A stretch of 50,886 nt of DNA from NCBI GenBank assembly GCA_964607795.1, contig CAZSLA010000002.1, positions 1-50,886 of the forward strand, given 5' to 3'. This DNA comes from an uncultured Gammaproteobacteria bacterium. GTDB taxonomy: Bacteria; Patescibacteriota; Microgenomatia; UBA8517. The stretch's first letter is position 1, and every line of letters begins with the position of its first letter. Of this stretch, positions 13,981 to 22,441 are shown piece after piece. The notes under the pieces are model-generated. The model was not told the origin of the DNA. It made no database searches and worked only from the letters and a program-made list of their open reading frames with translations. The translations under genes and the position numbers were made by a program.

Positions 13981-15202
13981 TTTCTTTTATAATTCTTGTA
14001 ACTTTATTTGCCTGCGATAAAGATAAGGTGGGGTAGGTGGGCAAATTAATAGTGGATCTGGCCAATTTTTCGGCATTAGGGCAAGATCCTGTTTTATATT
14101 TTAGTAACTTGAGGTCTTTTGCCGGGGTAACAATATGTGAATACCAATCTCCAAGCAAAACTCCTTTTTGTTTTGCCTTCTTAAAAACCAATTTACTTTT
14201 TGATAAAGAAACAGGAATTCTTAGCCACACAGGCTCACCCCTCACTTTAGGAAAAGTAATCGCATCCAAATTAATGTTATTTTTGTAATAAGCATATATT
14301 AGCTTGCGATGGTTGTTGTATTTATTTAGTTTCATTAGTTGGTGAGCCGCAAGTACCGCTAAGGCTGGAGACATTTTTTTAGGAAACGCAGCCGGTTGAC
14401 CACCGACTTTTTCTTCATCATATATCGCTTTTGTAAGTAATTTAACTTTTTGCAAAGATATCAATAGTACTTTTCCTAATCCTAAATTATAAAAAGGAAG
14501 AATTAAAAACAGAGCAATCGGATGCAATAATTGTTGGAATGTCCAATAGCGGCTTGGTTCTTCAACATTTTTTAATTCAAGTTTCACTTTTTCATAAATA
14601 GACTTTTTATTTGCTAGGATCATGCCACCAAACACTGAAGATATAATTTTGTCGCGGCCAAAACTAAAAAACGAAACATCCCCAAACGTACCCACTTTTC
14701 TATTATTCAGCTCAGCTCCAAGTGAATGGGCGCAGTCTTCAATCAGAAACAGCTTATGCTTATCTGCTATTTTTTTTATTTTTTCGATGTCCGCTGGAAT
14801 ACCAAATGTATGTTGTATTACGATTGCTTTGGTCTTTTTTGTTATCTTTTTTCCCAGGCCTTCGGGGTCCATGTTATATGAGTCGTCAATATCAATGTAT
14901 TTTGGTGTCGCGCCTAACCATAAAATGGAATTCGGAACAGACACACAAGTAAAGGCTTGCACAAGAACCTCATCCGCACATCCAATTCCCAGGGCCTTTA
15001 AAATTACATATAGAGCGCTACGTCCCGAATTCACTGAAAGCACAAAACTTTTTGTACCAAATATTTTTTTAAACTCGTGTTTGAAAGTTCGTATTTCTTT
15101 TTTATTTTTCCAGCGTCTTGGTGAAAATAGCATTCTCAAAGCAAGCCCTACATCGTCCATTTCCGTGTTGGGTGAGAGCGATATTGCTATTGGTCTAATC
15201 AT
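13973..15202 (-). CDS. DegT/DnrJ/EryC1/StrS-family PLP-dependent aminotransferase
   Basis: 409 aa with EVLVQAFTCVSVPNS, IEDCAHSLGA, and a candidate Schiff-base lysine in FSFGRDKIIS. Overlaps murF by 4 nt and femX by 8 nt. Confidence 0.82.
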   Translation of the reverse strand: MIRPIAISLSPNTEMDDVGLALRMLFSPRRWKNKKEIRTFKHEFKKIFGTKSFVLSVNSGRSALYVILKALGIGCADEVLVQAFTCVSVPNSILWLGATPKYIDIDDSYNMDPEGLGKKITKKTKAIVIQHTFGIPADIEKIKKIADKHKLFLIEDCAHSLGAELNNRKVGTFGDVSFFSFGRDKIISSVFGGMILANKKSIYEKVKLELKNVEEPSRYWTFQQLLHPIALFLILPFYNLGLGKVLLISLQKVKLLTKAIYDEEKVGGQPAAFPKKMSPALAVLAAHQLMKLNKYNNHRKLIYAYYKNNINLDAITFPKVRGEPVWLRIPVSLSKSKLVFKKAKQKGVLLGDWYSHIVTPAKDLKLLKYKTGSCPNAEKLARSTINLPTYPTLSLSQANKVTRIIKENV

Positions 15203-16767
15203 TTTAGAGTTTTTATGTAATTTATAACTTCCGAGGGTAGTCTGCCCTCCAAAAGAATAACATATTTCCCTTTTACCAAGTCATCGACCTTTGTGTTTAT
15301 TTTTTTACTGTCTTTAATTAAATAAATTTCAGCTCTCCCATTGACTCCCCTGGCAAAGGCTTTTAAGAAGGATTTATGGGTAATCACAATCTGTTCACAT
15401 ACGTCTCCGGCCAGTTTGCCTAGCTTTTTGTGAATATCAAATGCCTTGCTGCCAAGCTCAATTATACCGGTTGTAACGACTGCTCTTTTTGCACCCTTGT
15501 GACTGTAGAGATAATTTAAGGCAGATTCAAATCCCTGGGGCGTAGCATTATATGTGTCATCAATAATTACGGCACCGTTTTGAGTTTTTCTTATATTCAT
15601 GGTGTTTTCCGGTAAAGTGAGATTTTGAATGCCAGCACCAATCCTATTCCAACTCACTTTATAGTGCCGGCTAACAGCAATGGCAGCACACAAGTTCTCC
15701 AGGAAAAAATCCACTACAAATGGGGCAAAAAATTCAAACCAACCCTTACCCTCGCTAACTTTAAATTTAATACCCTCCATTGTTGTCGCTATTTTTTTCA
15801 TTTTTATGCCTGTAGAAGTTCCAGTGCCATACGTCTTGATAAGCAAATCTTTATTTAGATTTTTTGACCAAACCGCGAGTTCATGGGTGTACTTGTTGTT
15901 TGCATTCAAAAGTACCAGCGCCTTTTGTGGCAGCGATTCGATTAGCTCGAATTTTGTCTTTTTTATTTCTTCTATCCCACCAAAAAGATCAAGGTGTTGC
16001 GGTTCTATTCCTGTGATTACGGCTACTTCCGGATTGGCAATCTCTGTTATTGCACGGATTTCTCCTTTCTTATAAGCGCCCATCTCAACAACAAAGAAAT
16101 CAGCTTTTTTGTCAAACTCTTGACATATTTTTCTGATCACACCAAATACAGTGTTTTCATTTTTTCTCGTTTTTTCTACCCGATACGCCTGGCTTAACAA
16201 ATGTGCTGTAAATTCTTTAGTGGTTGTTTTGCCATAACTACCGGTAATTCCAATGACAACAGGTTTTACCTTGGATAAAATTTTTTTTGCCTCGGCGACT
16301 TCTTTGTTTTTTGCGGACAAAACCAACGGATGGGTGATCCATATTCCAATAATCGGAGCATAAACTAAAGATAATTCACCCAACAGTAACCCCAGTGTTC
16401 CGTATAAAATAAAAATTACAATTGAAAAAAATGAAAATAATAATCCTGTTGAAAGTATAATCTTTGATCTTTGAGTAAACTGCGGCCTTTTTAACTTTTT
16501 TCTATATATTCTCCAAAGAAATAATAGATCTAAATAAATAAATATAGCTGCCAAAAACGGCCAATATCCCAAAATAATTAAAAGCAGCTTAAGCAATAAA
16601 AAATGTATCCCCAGGCTTTCAAAAAGCCCATCACTCATTTTAAGAAGAACCTTAAATCTGTCAAATCTGTACTCCTTTACCTGCCACCAATAAATCCACG
16701 TCAAGCTGGAAAATAATATTTGCGGTAACCATAATAAAATAATTATGCTTTGCTGGATTTGTGCCAT
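15199..16767 (-). CDS. murF: MurF-like Mur ligase fused to an N-terminal polytopic membrane domain
   Basis: 522 aa. Residues ~1-150 form 4-5 hydrophobic helices. They are followed by the Mur ligase P-loop GITGSYGKTTTKE, EMGAYKKGEI, and ITGIEPQHLD. The usual soluble N-terminal UDP-binding domain appears absent. Confidence 0.8.
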   Translation of the reverse strand: MAQIQQSIIILLWLPQILFSSLTWIYWWQVKEYRFDRFKVLLKMSDGLFESLGIHFLLLKLLLIILGYWPFLAAIFIYLDLLFLWRIYRKKLKRPQFTQRSKIILSTGLLFSFFSIVIFILYGTLGLLLGELSLVYAPIIGIWITHPLVLSAKNKEVAEAKKILSKVKPVVIGITGSYGKTTTKEFTAHLLSQAYRVEKTRKNENTVFGVIRKICQEFDKKADFFVVEMGAYKKGEIRAITEIANPEVAVITGIEPQHLDLFGGIEEIKKTKFELIESLPQKALVLLNANNKYTHELAVWSKNLNKDLLIKTYGTGTSTGIKMKKIATTMEGIKFKVSEGKGWFEFFAPFVVDFFLENLCAAIAVSRHYKVSWNRIGAGIQNLTLPENTMNIRKTQNGAVIIDDTYNATPQGFESALNYLYSHKGAKRAVVTTGIIELGSKAFDIHKKLGKLAGDVCEQIVITHKSFLKAFARGVNGRAEIYLIKDSKKINTKVDDLVKGKYVILLEGRLPSEVINYIKTLK

Positions 16768-17471
16768 GCTTCAATTTTCCCGGCCACTTCTTTGGGTTTT
16801 TTATATGGCAATTTGTGATCTTCATTGAGAAAAATGTAAATTGTTGCTTGCTTGATATTTTCTTCTAAGTAAAGAGCATCTTTGAGAGGAGTTGCTTTAT
16901 CCAGTTTTCCCCACACAATCAATGTGGGCATTGCTATTTGTTTTACTACTTTTTTGAGATCCTGTTTGATAACTCTTCTCATAATAAGCCGCATTTTAGA
17001 ACTCGACTTTTCGTAATCAAGTTCTTTGGAGGCTTTGTAAAGAAACCTTTGCCATACCTTGGCCAGAGTGGGAGCTAAATTTAATACTTTTCCCACTTTT
17101 GCCAAAAGCAAAAAGAAAATTCGTTTTGAAAGCCTAGCGCGCGATATGCCCGCGGCAGCGCATAAAATAACCCCGGCTATTCTATCTTTATTAGTAGCCG
17201 CCAGTTTAATTGCCAGCCTGCCGCCAAACGAATGGCCAAAAACAAAGAACTTTTTTCCTTTAAATTTTTTGAGCGACCTAGAATAAATATATTCCGAATA
17301 TTCGTCCACTCCCCAAATACCAACCGGCTCAGGAGCTCCAAAGCCCGGGATTTCGGGTAAAAATACTTCCCAACCTAAATTGCCAAGTTCTTTGGCAAGT
17401 GGTTTTAGCTTATTAGTATCTGCCCCCCACCCATGCAAAAGAACAATAAACTTAGCTTCTTTAGAAATCAT
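16743..17471 (-). CDS. Alpha/beta-fold hydrolase
   Basis: 242 aa with LLHGWG and the nucleophile elbow GHSFGG. A late His lies in EDHKLPY. Confidence 0.8.
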   Translation of the reverse strand: MISKEAKFIVLLHGWGADTNKLKPLAKELGNLGWEVFLPEIPGFGAPEPVGIWGVDEYSEYIYSRSLKKFKGKKFFVFGHSFGGRLAIKLAATNKDRIAGVILCAAAGISRARLSKRIFFLLLAKVGKVLNLAPTLAKVWQRFLYKASKELDYEKSSSKMRLIMRRVIKQDLKKVVKQIAMPTLIVWGKLDKATPLKDALYLEENIKQATIYIFLNEDHKLPYKKPKEVAGKIEAWHKSSKA

Positions 17472-18590: not shown

Positions 18591-18704
18591 AAATATATTT
18601 TATAACAAACAGTTGATATAATACATCATATTAAGGAAATTAAAAAAATATTCGATATCACAAGAGAGGGCAGGCTTGGCAAAGAGATAAAGCGTCAAAT
18701 ACGT

Positions 18705-19706
18705 ATGAGCGTTGCTGCTCCAAAAGAAAAAAGGATCCATCTTGATCCAACCGAACTCACGGAAGTATCTAAAAAAATAATAGAAATCGAAACCCCCGCA
18801 CAACCAAAACAAGTAGCGTTCGATGGGAATACTGGACTTGCATATGTACCATGCATGAGAGGTTACACGCTTGCGATTTTCGGACTTTCAAACCACAAGC
18901 TTGAGAGAATCCGAGAAGTTAGGTTTCAAGATCAGTGTGTGGAGGTCGCAGTTGGAAAGGAGCACGTTTACGTCACAACTAGCAATTTTGACCGACCGCC
19001 CCATGAGCTGCTTAACAAACTTTGGATACTGAATAAGTCAGGTCAAAAGGTGGGTTGTGTTAACATCGAGGGTAATTGGAGCAAAGTCGTTGCACTAGAC
19101 CAAAACGAAGAACTAGCTGCTGTAAGTAATTGGTACAGTCATGATATCAGTTTTATAGACATATCAGATAAACGCAACCCCAGACTAATTCAGAGGGTTA
19201 AATTTGGCGAAGCTCCAAGAGGACTTCTTTTTTTACCAAATGGTGGTCTAATGGTTTCCGGATTCTATTCCGCGAATATCGGCATACTAAAAAGGAATAA
19301 TTCAGGCTGGGAAGTCACTTATATTAGCAATGAATTTGATAGAGCGAAATATCAAGGCAATATGAGGCATTTAGTTCTAGCCCCAGACCAAAAAAACGCA
19401 CTAGTTACAAATCTTGGAAGAAATATGGTTCATATTTGGTCAGTTCAGAAGCAAGACTTTGTTGATCAAATCCTGGTTGGACTTGAACCAAATACAGTTG
19501 ATTTTATAAATGGCAACATAGCTGCCATTTCTTGTCGCAAATCTAATCTTATTTATTATTTAGATTATCCCAACCGAAAGGTTGTTGGGGTTTCTGAACC
19601 TACTGGAAACTTGCCGACTGGACTTTGCTGGGCCGGAGAGAACAAATGCCTTGTTACGAGCTTTGAGAGTAACAAGCTAGAACTTTACCAATTAAATGAT
19701 GGGTAA
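18705..19706 (+). CDS. Cytoplasmic 7-bladed beta-propeller protein (YVTN / lactonase-type repeats)
   Basis: 333 aa with no signal peptide. There are about seven ~45-aa repeats ending in hydrophobic strands (LAYVPC, HVYVTTSN, LAAVSNW, LMVSGFY, ALVTNLG, IAAISC, CLVTSFE), with G..P.G turns as in YncE/Pgl-like propellers. Confidence 0.6.
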   Translation: MSVAAPKEKRIHLDPTELTEVSKKIIEIETPAQPKQVAFDGNTGLAYVPCMRGYTLAIFGLSNHKLERIREVRFQDQCVEVAVGKEHVYVTTSNFDRPPHELLNKLWILNKSGQKVGCVNIEGNWSKVVALDQNEELAAVSNWYSHDISFIDISDKRNPRLIQRVKFGEAPRGLLFLPNGGLMVSGFYSANIGILKRNNSGWEVTYISNEFDRAKYQGNMRHLVLAPDQKNALVTNLGRNMVHIWSVQKQDFVDQILVGLEPNTVDFINGNIAAISCRKSNLIYYLDYPNRKVVGVSEPTGNLPTGLCWAGENKCLVTSFESNKLELYQLNDG

Positions 19707-20350
19707 ATATTAATTCCTGTTAACTGCAACTTACCTTTTGTATCCATAAGTAATACACTTACAGAACCATTCGGTATCGAAAAATATCTTCGATTGTCAA
19801 ACGAGCTCTGTAGTGCCTCAAGAATAACCATTTTTATAATATCGACATGCGTAATTGCAAATACTAAACGATTATCCAAATTTTTAAATCGTTGCAGAAC
19901 GCTCAATACTCTTTGTCTAACCTCCTCATATGACTCTCCATCTGGAAACCTAAATTTGCTAGGATTATACATCCAATCATCTACCATTTCGCCGTACTTT
20001 CCCCTTAGTTCATTACCCCTTTTTCCGCTGAATTCACCCATATCAGTTTCGATTAATTGTGGTAGCTCCATAATTTGCGGCTTATTATATTTAAATTGTT
20101 GACTGATAAGTTCTGCTGTTTGTTTGCATCTTATTAACGGACTTGTAAACATAGCTATACCAGATTCTTCAGATTCTGAGAAAATGTCATGCATGGACGA
20201 TATTCTCTGTACGAAATCATCAACCTGCTGATCTCTAACTATTTCAGCGTCGATTACTCTTCCCATGATGACTCCGTTGCGATTATTTTCGGTTGCCAGA
20301 TGTCTTATGAAAACCAGCTTACGTTCAGTGCTCATCAAACACCCTTTCAA
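19685..20350 (-). CDS. Histidine phosphatase superfamily protein (phosphoglycerate-mutase-like branch)
   Basis: 221 aa with the RHG-type motif FIRHLATENN, TSPLIRCKQTA, PDGESYEEV, and a second catalytic His in AITHVDIIK. Confidence 0.85.
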   Translation of the reverse strand: MKGCLMSTERKLVFIRHLATENNRNGVIMGRVIDAEIVRDQQVDDFVQRISSMHDIFSESEESGIAMFTSPLIRCKQTAELISQQFKYNKPQIMELPQLIETDMGEFSGKRGNELRGKYGEMVDDWMYNPSKFRFPDGESYEEVRQRVLSVLQRFKNLDNRLVFAITHVDIIKMVILEALQSSFDNRRYFSIPNGSVSVLLMDTKGKLQLTGINIYPSFNW

Positions 20351-20957
20351 TGATCAATTGAGCGTTTATCTCCGGAGGTGTGTTTCCATCCATCTTAAGA
20401 TAATCCGCTCTATTAAAAGAACCGAAGCTTTCAAACCTGCCTATAAACTCTACAAAAGTAAATGGGCTTGGGCCATGCCCGCCATTTTCAATTCTACGGG
20501 AAACTCTAGCATAAGCAATCTGAGGATTAACACTCACTTCAACGATTGAAATAGCTAAACAAATCGAATTAGTTCGACCTATTTCTTCAATCTTGTTCAA
20601 AGTATGCTCTAATCCTTCAGTATTACTAAAAGGCTGGTTCCATATTACACACTTGCCATTGCGAATCGCTGTTTTAAACTGGTCTAACATAAACCGATAT
20701 GGGTAGAATTTAGAGTCGAGGTCAGTGCATTCAATCCTAGTTTTTTCAACAAAATCAGAATAATCTCTCCCCTCGTAATCTATGTCATCTGGGTCAATAA
20801 TTGCACACGAAGCTTGTCCAATCCTTTTCACGATTTCTCCAGAAACAGTGGATTTTCCAGAACCAGGTATTCCCCGTATTAATATTACCCTAACTGTTTC
20901 TTGCGGCTTTTCTCTAATTTCAAGTTTATTTAAGTCAAATCTTTCAGGGTTTGACAT
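20325..20957 (-). CDS. P-loop kinase-like NTPase (AAA_33 / Zeta / PNK / gluconokinase-type fold); substrate unknown
   Basis: 210 aa with Walker A GIPGSGKST, followed ~20 aa later by a hydrophobic strand ending in Asp (CAIIDPDD). Overlaps the downstream phosphatase gene by 26 nt. Confidence 0.72.
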   Translation of the reverse strand: MSNPERFDLNKLEIREKPQETVRVILIRGIPGSGKSTVSGEIVKRIGQASCAIIDPDDIDYEGRDYSDFVEKTRIECTDLDSKFYPYRFMLDQFKTAIRNGKCVIWNQPFSNTEGLEHTLNKIEEIGRTNSICLAISIVEVSVNPQIAYARVSRRIENGGHGPSPFTFVEFIGRFESFGSFNRADYLKMDGNTPPEINAQLIIERVFDEH

Positions 20958-20985
20958 TTGACGATATATACTTCGATGTTATAAT
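20958..20985 (+). promoter_or_regulatory. Sigma-70-type promoter that would give a leaderless or near-leaderless transcript for the small ORF
   Basis: TTGACG (20958-20963), a 16-nt spacer, then TATAAT (20980-20985). The ATG at 20993 lies 7 nt after the -10. The element abuts the kinase start codon (20957). Confidence 0.4.
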
Positions 20986-20992
20986 AACACAA

Positions 20993-21265
20993 ATGTCACC
21001 TGAAAATAAATCCGAACGGACTGAAGTGTTGAGTATCGGAAATTCAGAAAAAGTAATTTTAGATCCTTCAGGAGGCAGTATATTCACCCGCAAGTTAATA
21101 TTTGGAAGACCGGACCTGCTTGAACAGTGTCCACGCGAAGTTCAAGAAAGTATCAGACTTATGCATCATGCAATAACACTGCAATCCAAAGGTTGCCATG
21201 AGAAGGGTAGGGAATATCTACAAATGACTTTTGAATCACTTGATAGACCGAAAATATTAGATTGA
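20993..21265 (+). CDS. Small hypothetical protein (90 aa from the ATG at 20993)
   Basis: Open frame divergent from the kinase gene. The ORF track starts at a TTG (20951), but an ATG lies at 20993 just downstream of a promoter-like element. I recognise no motif. Confidence 0.4.
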   Translation: MSPENKSERTEVLSIGNSEKVILDPSGGSIFTRKLIFGRPDLLEQCPREVQESIRLMHHAITLQSKGCHEKGREYLQMTFESLDRPKILD

Positions 21266-22253
21266 TTTTCCAATTTTGTGCACTCTTCCTACAAGGGCTT
21301 CATTTACGGCTTTTTTATCGGACCATTCATGTTCAACTCCATCAATATTCATTCCCTCTTCATGGCCTTTTCCACAAATTAAAACAGTAGATCCCGTTTC
21401 TGCTAAATAATTAATTGCAAAGTAAACTGCCATTCCTCTGTCTGGAATATTATGGATCTTGTAGAAATGATTTGGATTTACTCCTTCCTTTACCACTATA
21501 TTACTTGCCTTAAAATGAGAATCCTGCTTCAACGAATAAGAAACTAATACATTATTAAGATTTGACCTGATCTTTTTCGTCTTTGTCCGCCACCGCAGTC
21601 TCTGCTTCATTCAAGAAAGACGTCTTTGCTTGGCGATATTGTTCAAAACTCTTATGATAATCGAGATGTTCGGGAGTAATATTGGTAATCGCAGAAACCT
21701 CAAAGCTTAAACCATACACCCGAGCCTGATCTATAGCCTGAGACGATATTTCAATAATACAATGAGAACAATTAGCTTAAACCATTGCATACAAAAGCAT
21801 CTGTAATTCTAAAGGTTCAGGGGCAGTTGTATGCAAACCAGTTTTAATTACTTTTTTATTTATTTTTGCAGAAGTAGTAGAAATTAGGCCAACCTTTACA
21901 CCTGATCTTATGAGCAAGTGATGAATCATATTAGAAACAGTTGTTTTCCCATCAGTCCCAGTTACTCCAATTAAACTCATTTTGTCAGCCGGATTATCAA
22001 ACCAGTTTGCTGCAATAAGCGAAAGAGCTTTTCTTGAATCTTTCACCTTAATATAAGTAACCTCCCTAAGCCAATTTGGTTGTGGATCTTTTTCGCCGAT
22101 AATTACGATTGCACCCTTGGAAATAACCTTGTCAACATAATCGTGGGCATCGCTTCTTAACCCCTGTATAGCCACAAACAATGAGTTCTTGTTAACCTTT
22201 CTTGAATCATCAATTACAGCACCAATATCAGGATTTGAAGAGCAAAACCTCAT
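21257..22253 (-). pseudogene. murE: Decayed UDP-N-acetylmuramoyl-tripeptide synthetase gene (murE)
   Basis: MurE similarity is split across the locus. The N-terminal part runs ...DDSRKV...GVTGTDGKTT...LHTTAPEPLELQ... to an in-frame TAA at 21777-21779. The same frame continues ANCSHCIIEISSQAIDQARV...ITNITPEHLDYHKSFEQYRQAK. A frameshift near 21566-21575 follows, then VLVSYSLKQDSHFKASNI. The sequence then jumps directly to the C-terminal IPDRGMAVYFAI...LICGKGHEE. About 170 codons are missing, including the DYAHTPD and DNPR regions. Confidence 0.8.
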
Positions 22254-22294: not shown

Positions 22295-22441
22295 TATTTC
22301 TCTTATGACTGCGCCTAACTTTTCTAGGTTTTCTGCAAAGTGTGAGTGTCTGCGGTAAAGCGCATCTGCGTTATTGACAGTAGAATTACCCTCAGCAACC
22401 ACAGTATATATCATTATCGTCTCAACTTCAGCGTCAGTAAA
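22295..22441 (-). pseudogene. murA: Relic of the 3' end of a murA-like (enolpyruvyl transferase) gene
   Basis: 49 codons with no start: FTDAEVETIMIYTVVAEGNSTVNNADALYRRHSHFAENLEKLGAVIREI*. They align without gaps to the MurA C-terminus pattern TDLRA....L.LA.L.AEG.S.V.....L.RGY..F..KL..LGA.I.R. The relic begins directly after the ftsI stop, in the ftsI frame. Confidence 0.55.

Follow-up and report, generated by a model that had tools for sequence, protein, structure and literature searches.

A conserved kinase and phosphatase gene pair in peptidoglycan-precursor operons of Patescibacteria, a candidate phospho-switch on a UDP-linked wall precursor

What might an overlapping pair of genes, one for a P-loop kinase and one for a histidine phosphatase, do inside a cell-wall locus? 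The pair considered here lies in a 50,886-nt stretch of DNA, contig CAZSLA010000002.1 (hereafter the window), from a metagenome-assembled genome (G000) of 813 kb and 96% completeness. A preliminary description had picked out the two genes and offered three functions: a split version of 6-phosphofructo-2-kinase/fructose-2,6-bisphosphatase (PFK-2/FBPase-2), a Zeta/PezT-like toxin with a phosphatase as antidote, and a sugar-acid module. The pair is real, with both open reading frames (ORFs) intact, and comparison across genomes firmly establishes a conserved kinase and phosphatase unit, specific to the candidate phyla radiation (CPR) and tied to peptidoglycan-precursor operons, that is accessory and patchy in its distribution. 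The features of the pair are as follows.

20325..20957, minus strand: P-loop kinase of 210 amino acids, assigned to a Patescibacteria-specific family in the AAA_33/Zeta clan by Pfam matches, invariant columns and an AlphaFold2 (AF2) model.
19685..20335, minus strand: branch-1 histidine phosphatase of an 'RHL' subfamily, 216 amino acids from the ATG at 20335, assigned by its His_Phos_1 match and invariant columns.
20325..20335, minus strand: 11-nt overlap of the kinase stop and phosphatase start, ATGAGCACTGA, read from the sequence.

The longest phosphatase frame spans 19685-20350(-), with an alternative TTG start at 20350 that would give 221 amino acids. The ATG at 20335 is preceded by AAAGGG and is the point at which homology to the orthologue at locus L003 begins, and it is probably the true start. 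Because the start is placed there, the overlap is 11 nt rather than the 26 nt originally reported, although the overlap itself stands. The L003 pair shares an identical 11-nt overlap, which is predicted to couple translation of the two genes. By our own ORF calls, kinase and phosphatase overlap or abut at all loci of this His_Phos_1 type, from a 2-nt gap to a 41-nt overlap. The window locus was recovered at 99.8-100% identity in contigs of four independent metagenome studies, which all give the same arrangement and so exclude an artefact of assembly. Metatranscriptome contigs that match the window at 100% identity cover the kinase at 20467-20779 and the phosphatase at 19755-20247; no piece of these contigs fell on the neighbouring murE relic or beta-propeller gene, coverage being thin and DNA carry-over possible. 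At 20958-20985 (+) lies a near-consensus promoter-like site (TTGACG, 16 nt, TATAAT; 11/12 with an extended TG), which abuts the kinase start codon and faces away from it, into a 104-codon ORF without a family match. A search of the spacer at 20958..21256 for sigma-70-like promoters found none on the kinase strand, and because that strand has no comparable site the kinase is probably read through from an ftsI/murE' transcript.

The proteins are small and predicted with high confidence (AF2 predicted local distance difference test, pLDDT, of 94 for the kinase and 91 for the propeller), and no signal peptide or membrane segment is evident. In the kinase ORF 20325-20957(-), the Walker A motif GIPGSGKST (from G29) and the later C51-AIIDPDD were confirmed as first described. 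The protein scores 34.8 bits against Pfam Zeta_toxin (cut-off 22.3) and 34.6 bits against AAA_33 (PF13671; cut-off 27). Its key residues are K35 in the Walker A motif, D55-P56-D57 after strand 2, R88, W106-N-Q108-P-F on strand 3, and a lid that reads R151...R155-x3-GGHGP. Scanned exhaustively with HMMER, 1.84 billion representative proteins yielded a family of 167 clusters at E<=1e-3, with members nearly all from Patescibacteria. An alignment of 56 members gives the signature RG[LI]PGSGKS, [LI]DPDxID, PYR[FY]L, [VI]IWNQPF, VE[VI]E and A..R..R...GGHGP; 12 columns are invariant over all 56 and 13 without the window sequence, and the window kinase keeps 13/13.

Among these 56 members, AAA_33 matched 56, Zeta_toxin 55, KTI12 40, APS kinase 9, CPT 2 and 6PF2K 1, and the SKI and gluconokinase Pfam models matched none. 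No NCBIfam kinase model came near its cut-off against the window kinase. A housekeeping kinase was considered and rejected: the NCBIfam models for shikimate, adenylate, gluconate and uridine kinases stayed far under their cut-offs and aligned to the P-loop only, so that the profile hidden Markov model (HMM) searches which the preliminary description had suggested as a check placed the protein in none of the housekeeping families that it had said would refute its proposal. The family profile matched PDB sequences weakly (PSTK 36 bits, Zeta 30 bits, Pnkp1 26 bits). From sequence and model together, the kinase is a separate branch of the AAA_33/Zeta clan, one whose substrate is not deducible from its fold. 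The PADLOC anti-phage-defence models gave no match, and no Pfam, NCBIfam or PADLOC model is specific to the family. Full-text literature searches found no description of it, nor of a phosphatase for phosphorylated UDP-N-acetylglucosamine (UDP-GlcNAc); the kinase and phosphatase module is rare and uncharacterised.

The phosphatase matches Pfam His_Phos_1 (PF00300) at 105 bits (E 5e-30, cut-off 21.7). The complete catalytic set first ascribed to it is present (R11, H12, R69, E96, H163) and invariant in the subfamily alignment (A3), but the motif given as RHG is RHL, a Gly to Leu change found throughout a subfamily of 13 clusters. The window protein keeps 30/31 subfamily-invariant columns. Its best NCBIfam models are CobC (TIGR03162, 91 bits) and PspA (78 bits), both under cut-off, and its PDB matches are 4ij5 (38 bits), 3hjg (35 bits) and FBPase-2 chains (27 bits). 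The Hydrogenobacter phosphoserine phosphatase PspA and the alpha-ribazole phosphatase CobC, which share its full catalytic set, are thus its best sequence relatives; unlike them, it scores under the equivalog cut-offs, carries RHL instead of RHG and belongs to a subfamily found only with this kinase and the propeller. All three of its nearest homologues whose context was looked up (P0175, P0180, P0183) lie in such a kinase-phosphatase-propeller trio.

Does the cell-wall setting extend beyond this one genome? A scan of one genome per species yielded 80 loci, and the 70 loci analysed come from these plus loci fetched by protein look-up; neighbouring ORFs were called and labelled with reference proteins, and counted as adjacent at <=300 nt. 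The 70 loci are nearly all from Patescibacteria, mostly Saccharibacteria with a few Woesebacteria, Shapirobacteria, WWE3 and Parcubacteria. The kinase adjoins a peptidoglycan gene (MraY, MurA, MurD/E, Ddl or MurG) in 51/70 and has one within 5 kb in 58/70, so the link to a cell-wall locus proposed for the window is both real and general. Two layouts recur. In the Microgenomates type, to which the window belongs, MurE/MurD precedes, on the same strand, the kinase and an overlapping His_Phos_1 gene, the propeller is convergent, and Alr, Ddl, MurF or MraY lies beyond. In Saccharibacteria, MraY is divergent from the kinase, which is usually followed by an IMPase-family or HAD gene and then by HTH-MurA, SHMT and MurB; the MraY of these loci is a true MraY (TIGR00445, 195 bits). 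Loci L004 and L007-L064 conserve this sub-cluster in the order MraY, kinase, IMPase or HAD, MurA, SHMT, MurB. Its MurA is a protein of ~507 amino acids with a fused N-terminal HTH_3 domain, and the SHMT gene that stands constantly between murA and murB might supply D-Ala or Gly.

A phosphatase is adjacent to or fused with the kinase in 31/70 loci, and these partners belong to four unrelated superfamilies: IMPase/CysQ-like (17), His_Phos_1 (8), HAD (5) and HD (2). The HAD partners resemble pyrimidine-nucleotidases, and the His_Phos_1 partner resembles CobC. In a maximum-likelihood tree of the kinase, the His_Phos_1-type kinases form a basal grade and Saccharibacteria a single clade (support 99/93); IMPase partners sit on the earliest Saccharibacteria branches, and later the partner changes to HAD or HD or is no longer adjacent. 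Database proteins also show the kinase fused to His_Phos_1 (three proteins, P0090, P0108 and P0111, kinase first and phosphatase second), to a CysQ-like IMPase domain (222 bits against the CysQ model, cut-off 229), to an HD domain and to an alpha/beta hydrolase. Wherever the contig extends to a neighbouring gene, the fusion too lies in a cell-wall setting, as the following arrangements show.

P0090, kinase-HisPhos fusion: MurG, fusion, propeller-FtsW-MraY.
P0111, kinase-HisPhos fusion: convergent propeller next.
HD-kinase fusion: adjoins Ddl.
P0088, alpha/beta hydrolase-kinase fusion: MurD, then the fusion, then HisPhos.
Kinase-CysQ-like fusion: adjoins MurA.

The surmise that the two window genes form a functional couple is borne out by the three kinase-then-phosphatase proteins and by the overlapping or abutting genes at every His_Phos_1-type locus. 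Four non-homologous partners together with several fusions make unusually clean comparative evidence for a kinase-phosphatase pair.

What could such a couple act on? We consider it possible, though short of probable, that the pair carries out reversible phosphorylation of a UDP-linked wall precursor. The kinase would use ATP, held by K35 in the P-loop and by R151 and R155 in the lid, with D57 as general base, and would transfer a phosphate to a hydroxyl group on a wall precursor linked to a uridine nucleotide, the likeliest being UDP-GlcNAc or UDP-N-acetylmuramic acid (UDP-MurNAc), the latter perhaps with its peptide. The coupled RHL-type phosphatase would strip that phosphate via a phospho-His12 intermediate, the YVTN propeller would be a conserved accessory partner, and kinase and phosphatase together would set precursor supply to MurA, MraY and MurG as a reversible brake or buffer. 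We infer both the substrate and the notion that the two enzymes act on the same phosphate. A UDP-linked precursor is favoured because every characterised kinase that shares this Asp register and Pfam signal uses UDP-GlcNAc or UDP-MurNAc, because the constant neighbours make or consume those molecules, and because the partner phosphatases belong to nucleotide-phosphatase-like families. In addition, an invariant Trp, an invariant Tyr and two invariant Arg would suit a phosphate-bearing nucleotide, and MurG, which still needs UDP-GlcNAc, is retained in G000. The more specific proposal, that in some CPR bacteria a domesticated Zeta-like kinase and an interchangeable phosphatase together switch a UDP-linked peptidoglycan precursor reversibly to a phosphorylated form (UDP-GlcNAc-P or UDP-MurNAc-P, for example), we regard as somewhat doubtful.

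Several observations weigh against such a switch. The Zeta alignment (1gvn) covers only kinase residues 8-83, about 76 N-terminal residues, and the motifs of strand 3 and the lid are either particular to the family or like those of AAA_33. Foldseek searches with the kinase model returned generic P-loop kinases only, at template modelling (TM) scores of 0.47-0.60, with the Mucorales RNA 5'-OH kinase 9drz on top and Zeta ranked low. No phosphatase lies within 300 nt of the kinase in 39/70 loci. Fused enzymes sharing one phosphate would run a futile cycle unless regulated, and the fusions better suit a sequential two-site pathway. A genome without MurA-E still keeps the pair, and a pure MurA regulator would be useless there. 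The kinase is also rare near and far, occurring in 3/151 Saccharimonadia genomes, in 6/81 genomes of one family and in only 1/40 relatives (G012, a weak match at E 9e-5); a gene missing from most close relatives cannot carry out a core step of peptidoglycan synthesis. Finally, strain polymorphism was set aside as evidence of purifying selection, as there are 12 variable sites only, the 3 changes in the trio are all non-synonymous, and Fisher p = 0.08.

How close is the kinase to a Zeta toxin? Known Zeta kinases act on UDP-GlcNAc and UDP-MurNAc, with a catalytic role for D67 (PMC5923241). The window kinase resembles Zeta/PezT (PF06414) in being a P-loop kinase of the same clan that scores above the cut-off of the model, in its link to peptidoglycan precursors, and in a Walker A Lys and an Asp 22 residues on that align with Zeta K46 and D67. 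Its DPD is in register with the Zeta VIDND motif that holds D67, and K35 and D57 are invariant in the family. Unlike Zeta, only its N-terminal third aligns, it has its own IWNQPF strand-3 motif and RxxxR-GGHGP lid, and it is ~200 rather than ~270 amino acids long; in the structural comparison it reaches a TMq of 0.47 over 161 aligned columns. No epsilon/PezA gene lies upstream, where instead MurD/MurE, MraY or Ddl is found (in the window, a spacer and then the murE pseudogene). The position of the kinase in Mur operons is fixed, and its partner is a phosphatase enzyme.

These likenesses and differences bear on the earlier suggestion of a toxin with its antidote. Spelled out further, a Zeta-like kinase would poison wall synthesis via a UDP-sugar, the phosphatase would serve as an enzymatic antitoxin, and the module would persist as a selfish or region-stabilising element. 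The Zeta_toxin score above cut-off and the catalytic Asp in register agree with this, as do the patchy accessory distribution and the horizontal acquisition seen here; any phosphatase fold could be an antidote, which would explain the four partner types, and EzeT (PMC4826407) is reportedly a precedent for a toxin fused to its antitoxin. Other points tell against it: AAA_33 scores equally, only ~76 residues align with Zeta, and the genes are embedded in Mur/MraY operons rather than variable islands. There is no small epsilon/PezA-like ORF and no PADLOC match, the toxin-like gene comes before the antidote, and MurA, the classical target, is absent from G000. The 39/70 solitary kinases likewise tell against it, though a more distant partner is possible. 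The chemistry, which this explanation shares with the reversible phosphorylation that we favour, is plausible; a role as an addiction module is unlikely, and we judge the explanation as a whole quite improbable.

The fold matches and the partner families raise another possibility, namely that kinase and phosphatase act in sequence on two sites of one molecule in the style of T4 polynucleotide kinase, the kinase phosphorylating a 5'-OH and the partner removing a 3' (or 2',3'-cyclic) phosphate. A 3'-phosphorylated nucleotide or RNA end would thereby become a 5'-NMP or a ligatable end, possibly as recycling of scavenged uridine nucleotides for UDP-linked wall precursors. The top Foldseek match is the RNA 5'-OH kinase 9drz, followed by adenylate and gluconate kinases, PSTK, PFKFB kinase domains, TmrD, PNKP and Zeta. 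PSTK and Pnkp1 are the top PDB profile matches, Pnkp1 aligning across the whole kinase domain. Like the end-healing enzymes (T4 Pnk, Pnkp, HD-Pnk, the Trl1 kinase), the family carries AAA_33 (in 56/56 members, with KTI12 in 40/56), a GxPGSGKS P-loop and an RxxxR lid, in which R151 and R155 are conserved. It is also paired with or fused to interchangeable HAD, HD and CysQ-like 3'-nucleotidase-type phosphatases, fusions that suit a sequential pathway; T4 Pnk (HAD-type) and HD-Pnk likewise show interchangeable healing phosphoesterases. However, the Asp-x-x-Arg acceptor motif, which binds the 5' nucleoside and its 3' phosphate in T4 Pnk and CthPnk, is absent: the window sequence reads D55-P-D57-D-I-D, and the family consensus has no Arg within 4 residues. 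The neighbours identified are wall-synthesis genes, peptidoglycan genes in the 51/70 loci noted above, labelled without a ligase reference and with no search aimed at RNA ligase or Hen1. All TM scores are ~0.5-0.6, so the top rank of 9drz is unspecific, and we know of no end-healing enzyme with a His_Phos_1 or IMPase partner. We think end healing or salvage unlikely, yet take it as the main rival to reversible phosphorylation of a wall precursor.

The order of the domains invites a third comparison. PFK-2/FBPase-2 also has its P-loop kinase at the N-terminus and its branch-1 histidine phosphatase at the C-terminus, an order that the module shares as a fusion or as translationally coupled genes, and it unites two opposing activities. 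The pair might thus be a regulator or pathway enzyme of sugar phosphates, either a split couple of this kind or a phosphomutase bypass feeding UDP-GlcNAc synthesis. PFKFB kinase domains are in the Foldseek list, FBPase-2 chains match the phosphatase at 27 bits, the IMPase-family and HAD partners include sugar-bisphosphatases, and a GlmU-like gene lies in L096. Of the split PFK-2/FBPase-2 proposed in the preliminary description, only the domain order fits. 6PF2K (PF01591) matches 1/56 members (E 4e-4) and is without a match at E<=1 in the window kinase, the phosphatase is nearer PspA and CobC, and the module is prokaryotic, CPR-restricted and set among cell-wall genes. The conserved Trp, Tyr and two Arg of the acceptor region would be more like a nucleotide-binding site, and overall a sugar-phosphate role seems very unlikely. 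A bypass of GlmM was rejected in its own right: genomes that carry the kinase and genomes that lack it both have a phosphohexomutase, with no complementarity. The NAD kinase C-terminal domain model PF20143 matched 0/18 CPR genomes (including G000, G001 and G041-G048) against 12/14 control genomes. A P-loop NAD kinase replacing NadK, and so supplying NADPH for MurB, was also rejected, as NadK is absent from 18/18 genomes with or without the kinase and again shows no complementarity.

The genes around the pair in the window are as follows.

18630..19706, plus strand: 7-bladed YVTN/Lp49-like beta-propeller, the convergent third member of the trio, assigned by alignment, PDB profile and AF2/Foldseek.
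20958..21256, no strand assigned: spacer of ~300 nt 5' of the kinase, with no recognisable homologue.
21257..22253, minus strand: murE pseudogene in three fragments, recognised by Pfam Mur_ligase fragments and a TIGR01085 match with an internal TAA.
22295..22441, minus strand: C-terminal murA relic of 49 codons, with tblastn identity of 50-52% to the MurA tails of L089 and L093.

His_Phos_1-type loci always come as a trio with a convergent YVTN-type propeller, which is absent from Saccharibacteria loci. The propeller alignment (A2) has a mean column identity of 53%; its PDB profile matches Lp49 (112.7 bits) and an archaeal S-layer YVTN protein (106 bits), with YbhE at only 19.5 bits, and the top Foldseek match of its AF2 model is 3bws. 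The preliminary description had called it lactonase-type and paired it with a gluconokinase-like kinase in a sugar-acid module. The propeller is not a lactonase: its match to the Lactonase model (PF10282) is marginal, 22.9 bits over 85 residues and not full-length, and with the gluconokinase and SKI models unmatched in the kinase family that module is not borne out. Orthologues begin with a conserved MKE..., which in the window reads IKE... from an ATT at 18630; the first in-frame ATG/GTG/TTG lies 25 codons on (the first ATG is at 18705), past an otherwise invariant Arg, and 7/65 otherwise invariant residues have been lost. The ATT start and lost residues may reflect early decay or a non-canonical start codon. 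Highly conserved WD40-like/YVTN propellers are typical interaction platforms, and some His_Phos_1 and HAD enzymes are protein phosphatases, so kinase and phosphatase could instead form a switch that regulates an enzyme of wall synthesis by protein phosphorylation, the propeller serving as scaffold or substrate. The absence of the propeller from Saccharibacteria, the IMPase-family and HD partners, which are not known as protein phosphatases, and the lack of similarity to HprK or PDRP-type P-loop protein kinases all count against this, and we give it little credence.

How, then, did the pair come to lie among damaged Mur genes? It is placed between the murE/murA remnants and a truncated ddl, and the damage first described near it was confirmed: murE is broken into three pieces and contains an internal TAA, ddl ends early at 259 amino acids, and murA is reduced to the 49-codon tail. 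The surrounding mraZ, rsmH, ftsI, mraY, ftsW, murG, ftsA and ftsZ are intact. The murE lesions number at least three (a stop codon, a frameshift and a large deletion), and one strain, from a landfill metagenome (run X2), has lost a further 101 nt of the relic, at window 21536-21638, as expected of a neutrally decaying pseudogene. While the adjacent murE decayed, the kinase and phosphatase kept their invariant columns (13/13 and 30/31), no worse than their orthologues. MurD precedes the kinase in orthologous loci, and a MurD or HAD relic sought in the 300-nt spacer was not found.

The same-genus genome G001 has an intact FtsI-MurA-MurB-MurE-MurD-Ddl-MurF-abhydrolase-MraY-FtsW cluster and no trio, which makes horizontal acquisition of the window copy probable. 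In the native flanks, identity to G001 is 82% for Ddl and 87% for MraY, while the N-terminal murE fragment is 46-55% identical to every MurE compared and 52% to that of G001. The G001 MurE is itself 63-67% identical to Woesebacteria-type MurE. Because of this difference between flanks and fragment the segment is read as foreign, and murA'-murE'-kinase-phosphatase-propeller is best read, from the sequence comparison, as xenologous DNA replacing a native murA-murD stretch, with the murE pseudogene probably co-acquired with the trio. The murA relic found no match to the same-genus MurA by tblastn. Low GC content was dropped as evidence of transfer, since the Mur genes of the same genus are equally AT-rich. 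That the window copy is foreign yet intact is firmly established.

In G000, tblastn and the MurE HMM recovered just a MurF-like gene besides the broken murE and truncated ddl, and no MurA, MurB, MurC, MurD or Alr. G000 keeps MraY, MurG, FtsW, FtsI and a FemAB gene intact. In the same family, G015, G017, G018 and G021 gave no match to the MurE model and G016 a weak one (E 9e-6), two of these genomes being closed; the cytoplasmic Mur pathway seems to have been lost repeatedly in this family.

An accessory, patchy and horizontally moved gene beside the drug targets MraY, MurA and Ddl could also be a resistance kinase, which would inactivate a uridine-type MraY inhibitor or a MurA inhibitor from neighbouring or host bacteria, and the fold matches include TmrD, a tunicamycin-resistance protein. 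Resistance of this kind would, however, be reversed by a dedicated phosphatase, whether partner or fused, and CPT matches only 2/56 members; this is the explanation in which we place the least confidence.

The wall clusters around the family show further features. ORFs of ~880-930 amino acids in which MurE is fused to a second Mur-ligase module occur at L006 5220-7958, at L017 5278-7923 and in G001 C16 (a 926-amino-acid ORF); by Pfam, the L006 fusion is MurE followed by MurD-like_N. In the trio locus L102, at 1060-2427, MurL (UDP-MurNAc-L-Ala-L-Glu epimerase domains PF26299 and PF26298) lies beside a MurD-like ligase, which places a MurD2/MurL route to D-Glu within a CPR wall cluster. An S33-like alpha/beta hydrolase is a constant neighbour of MurF in the window (15199-17471), L003, L006, L032, G001 and L100; because of this constancy and its fusion to the kinase in P0088, it is suggested to share the functional neighbourhood.

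Peptidoglycan precursor synthesis is seen as a closed pathway whose steps have all been enumerated. The recurrence of this couple in Mur/MraY operons of several lineages, in ultra-small, host-dependent bacteria, is a sign that a phosphorylated intermediate, a regulator or a salvage step has gone unrecognised. A kinase that did act on UDP-sugars would put to constructive use a chemistry otherwise known only from suicide toxins. Should the proposal of a domesticated switch prove true, these bacteria would have a wall-synthesis control or salvage step without counterpart in model bacteria, in a module mobile enough to be transferred and kept where MurA-E have been lost.

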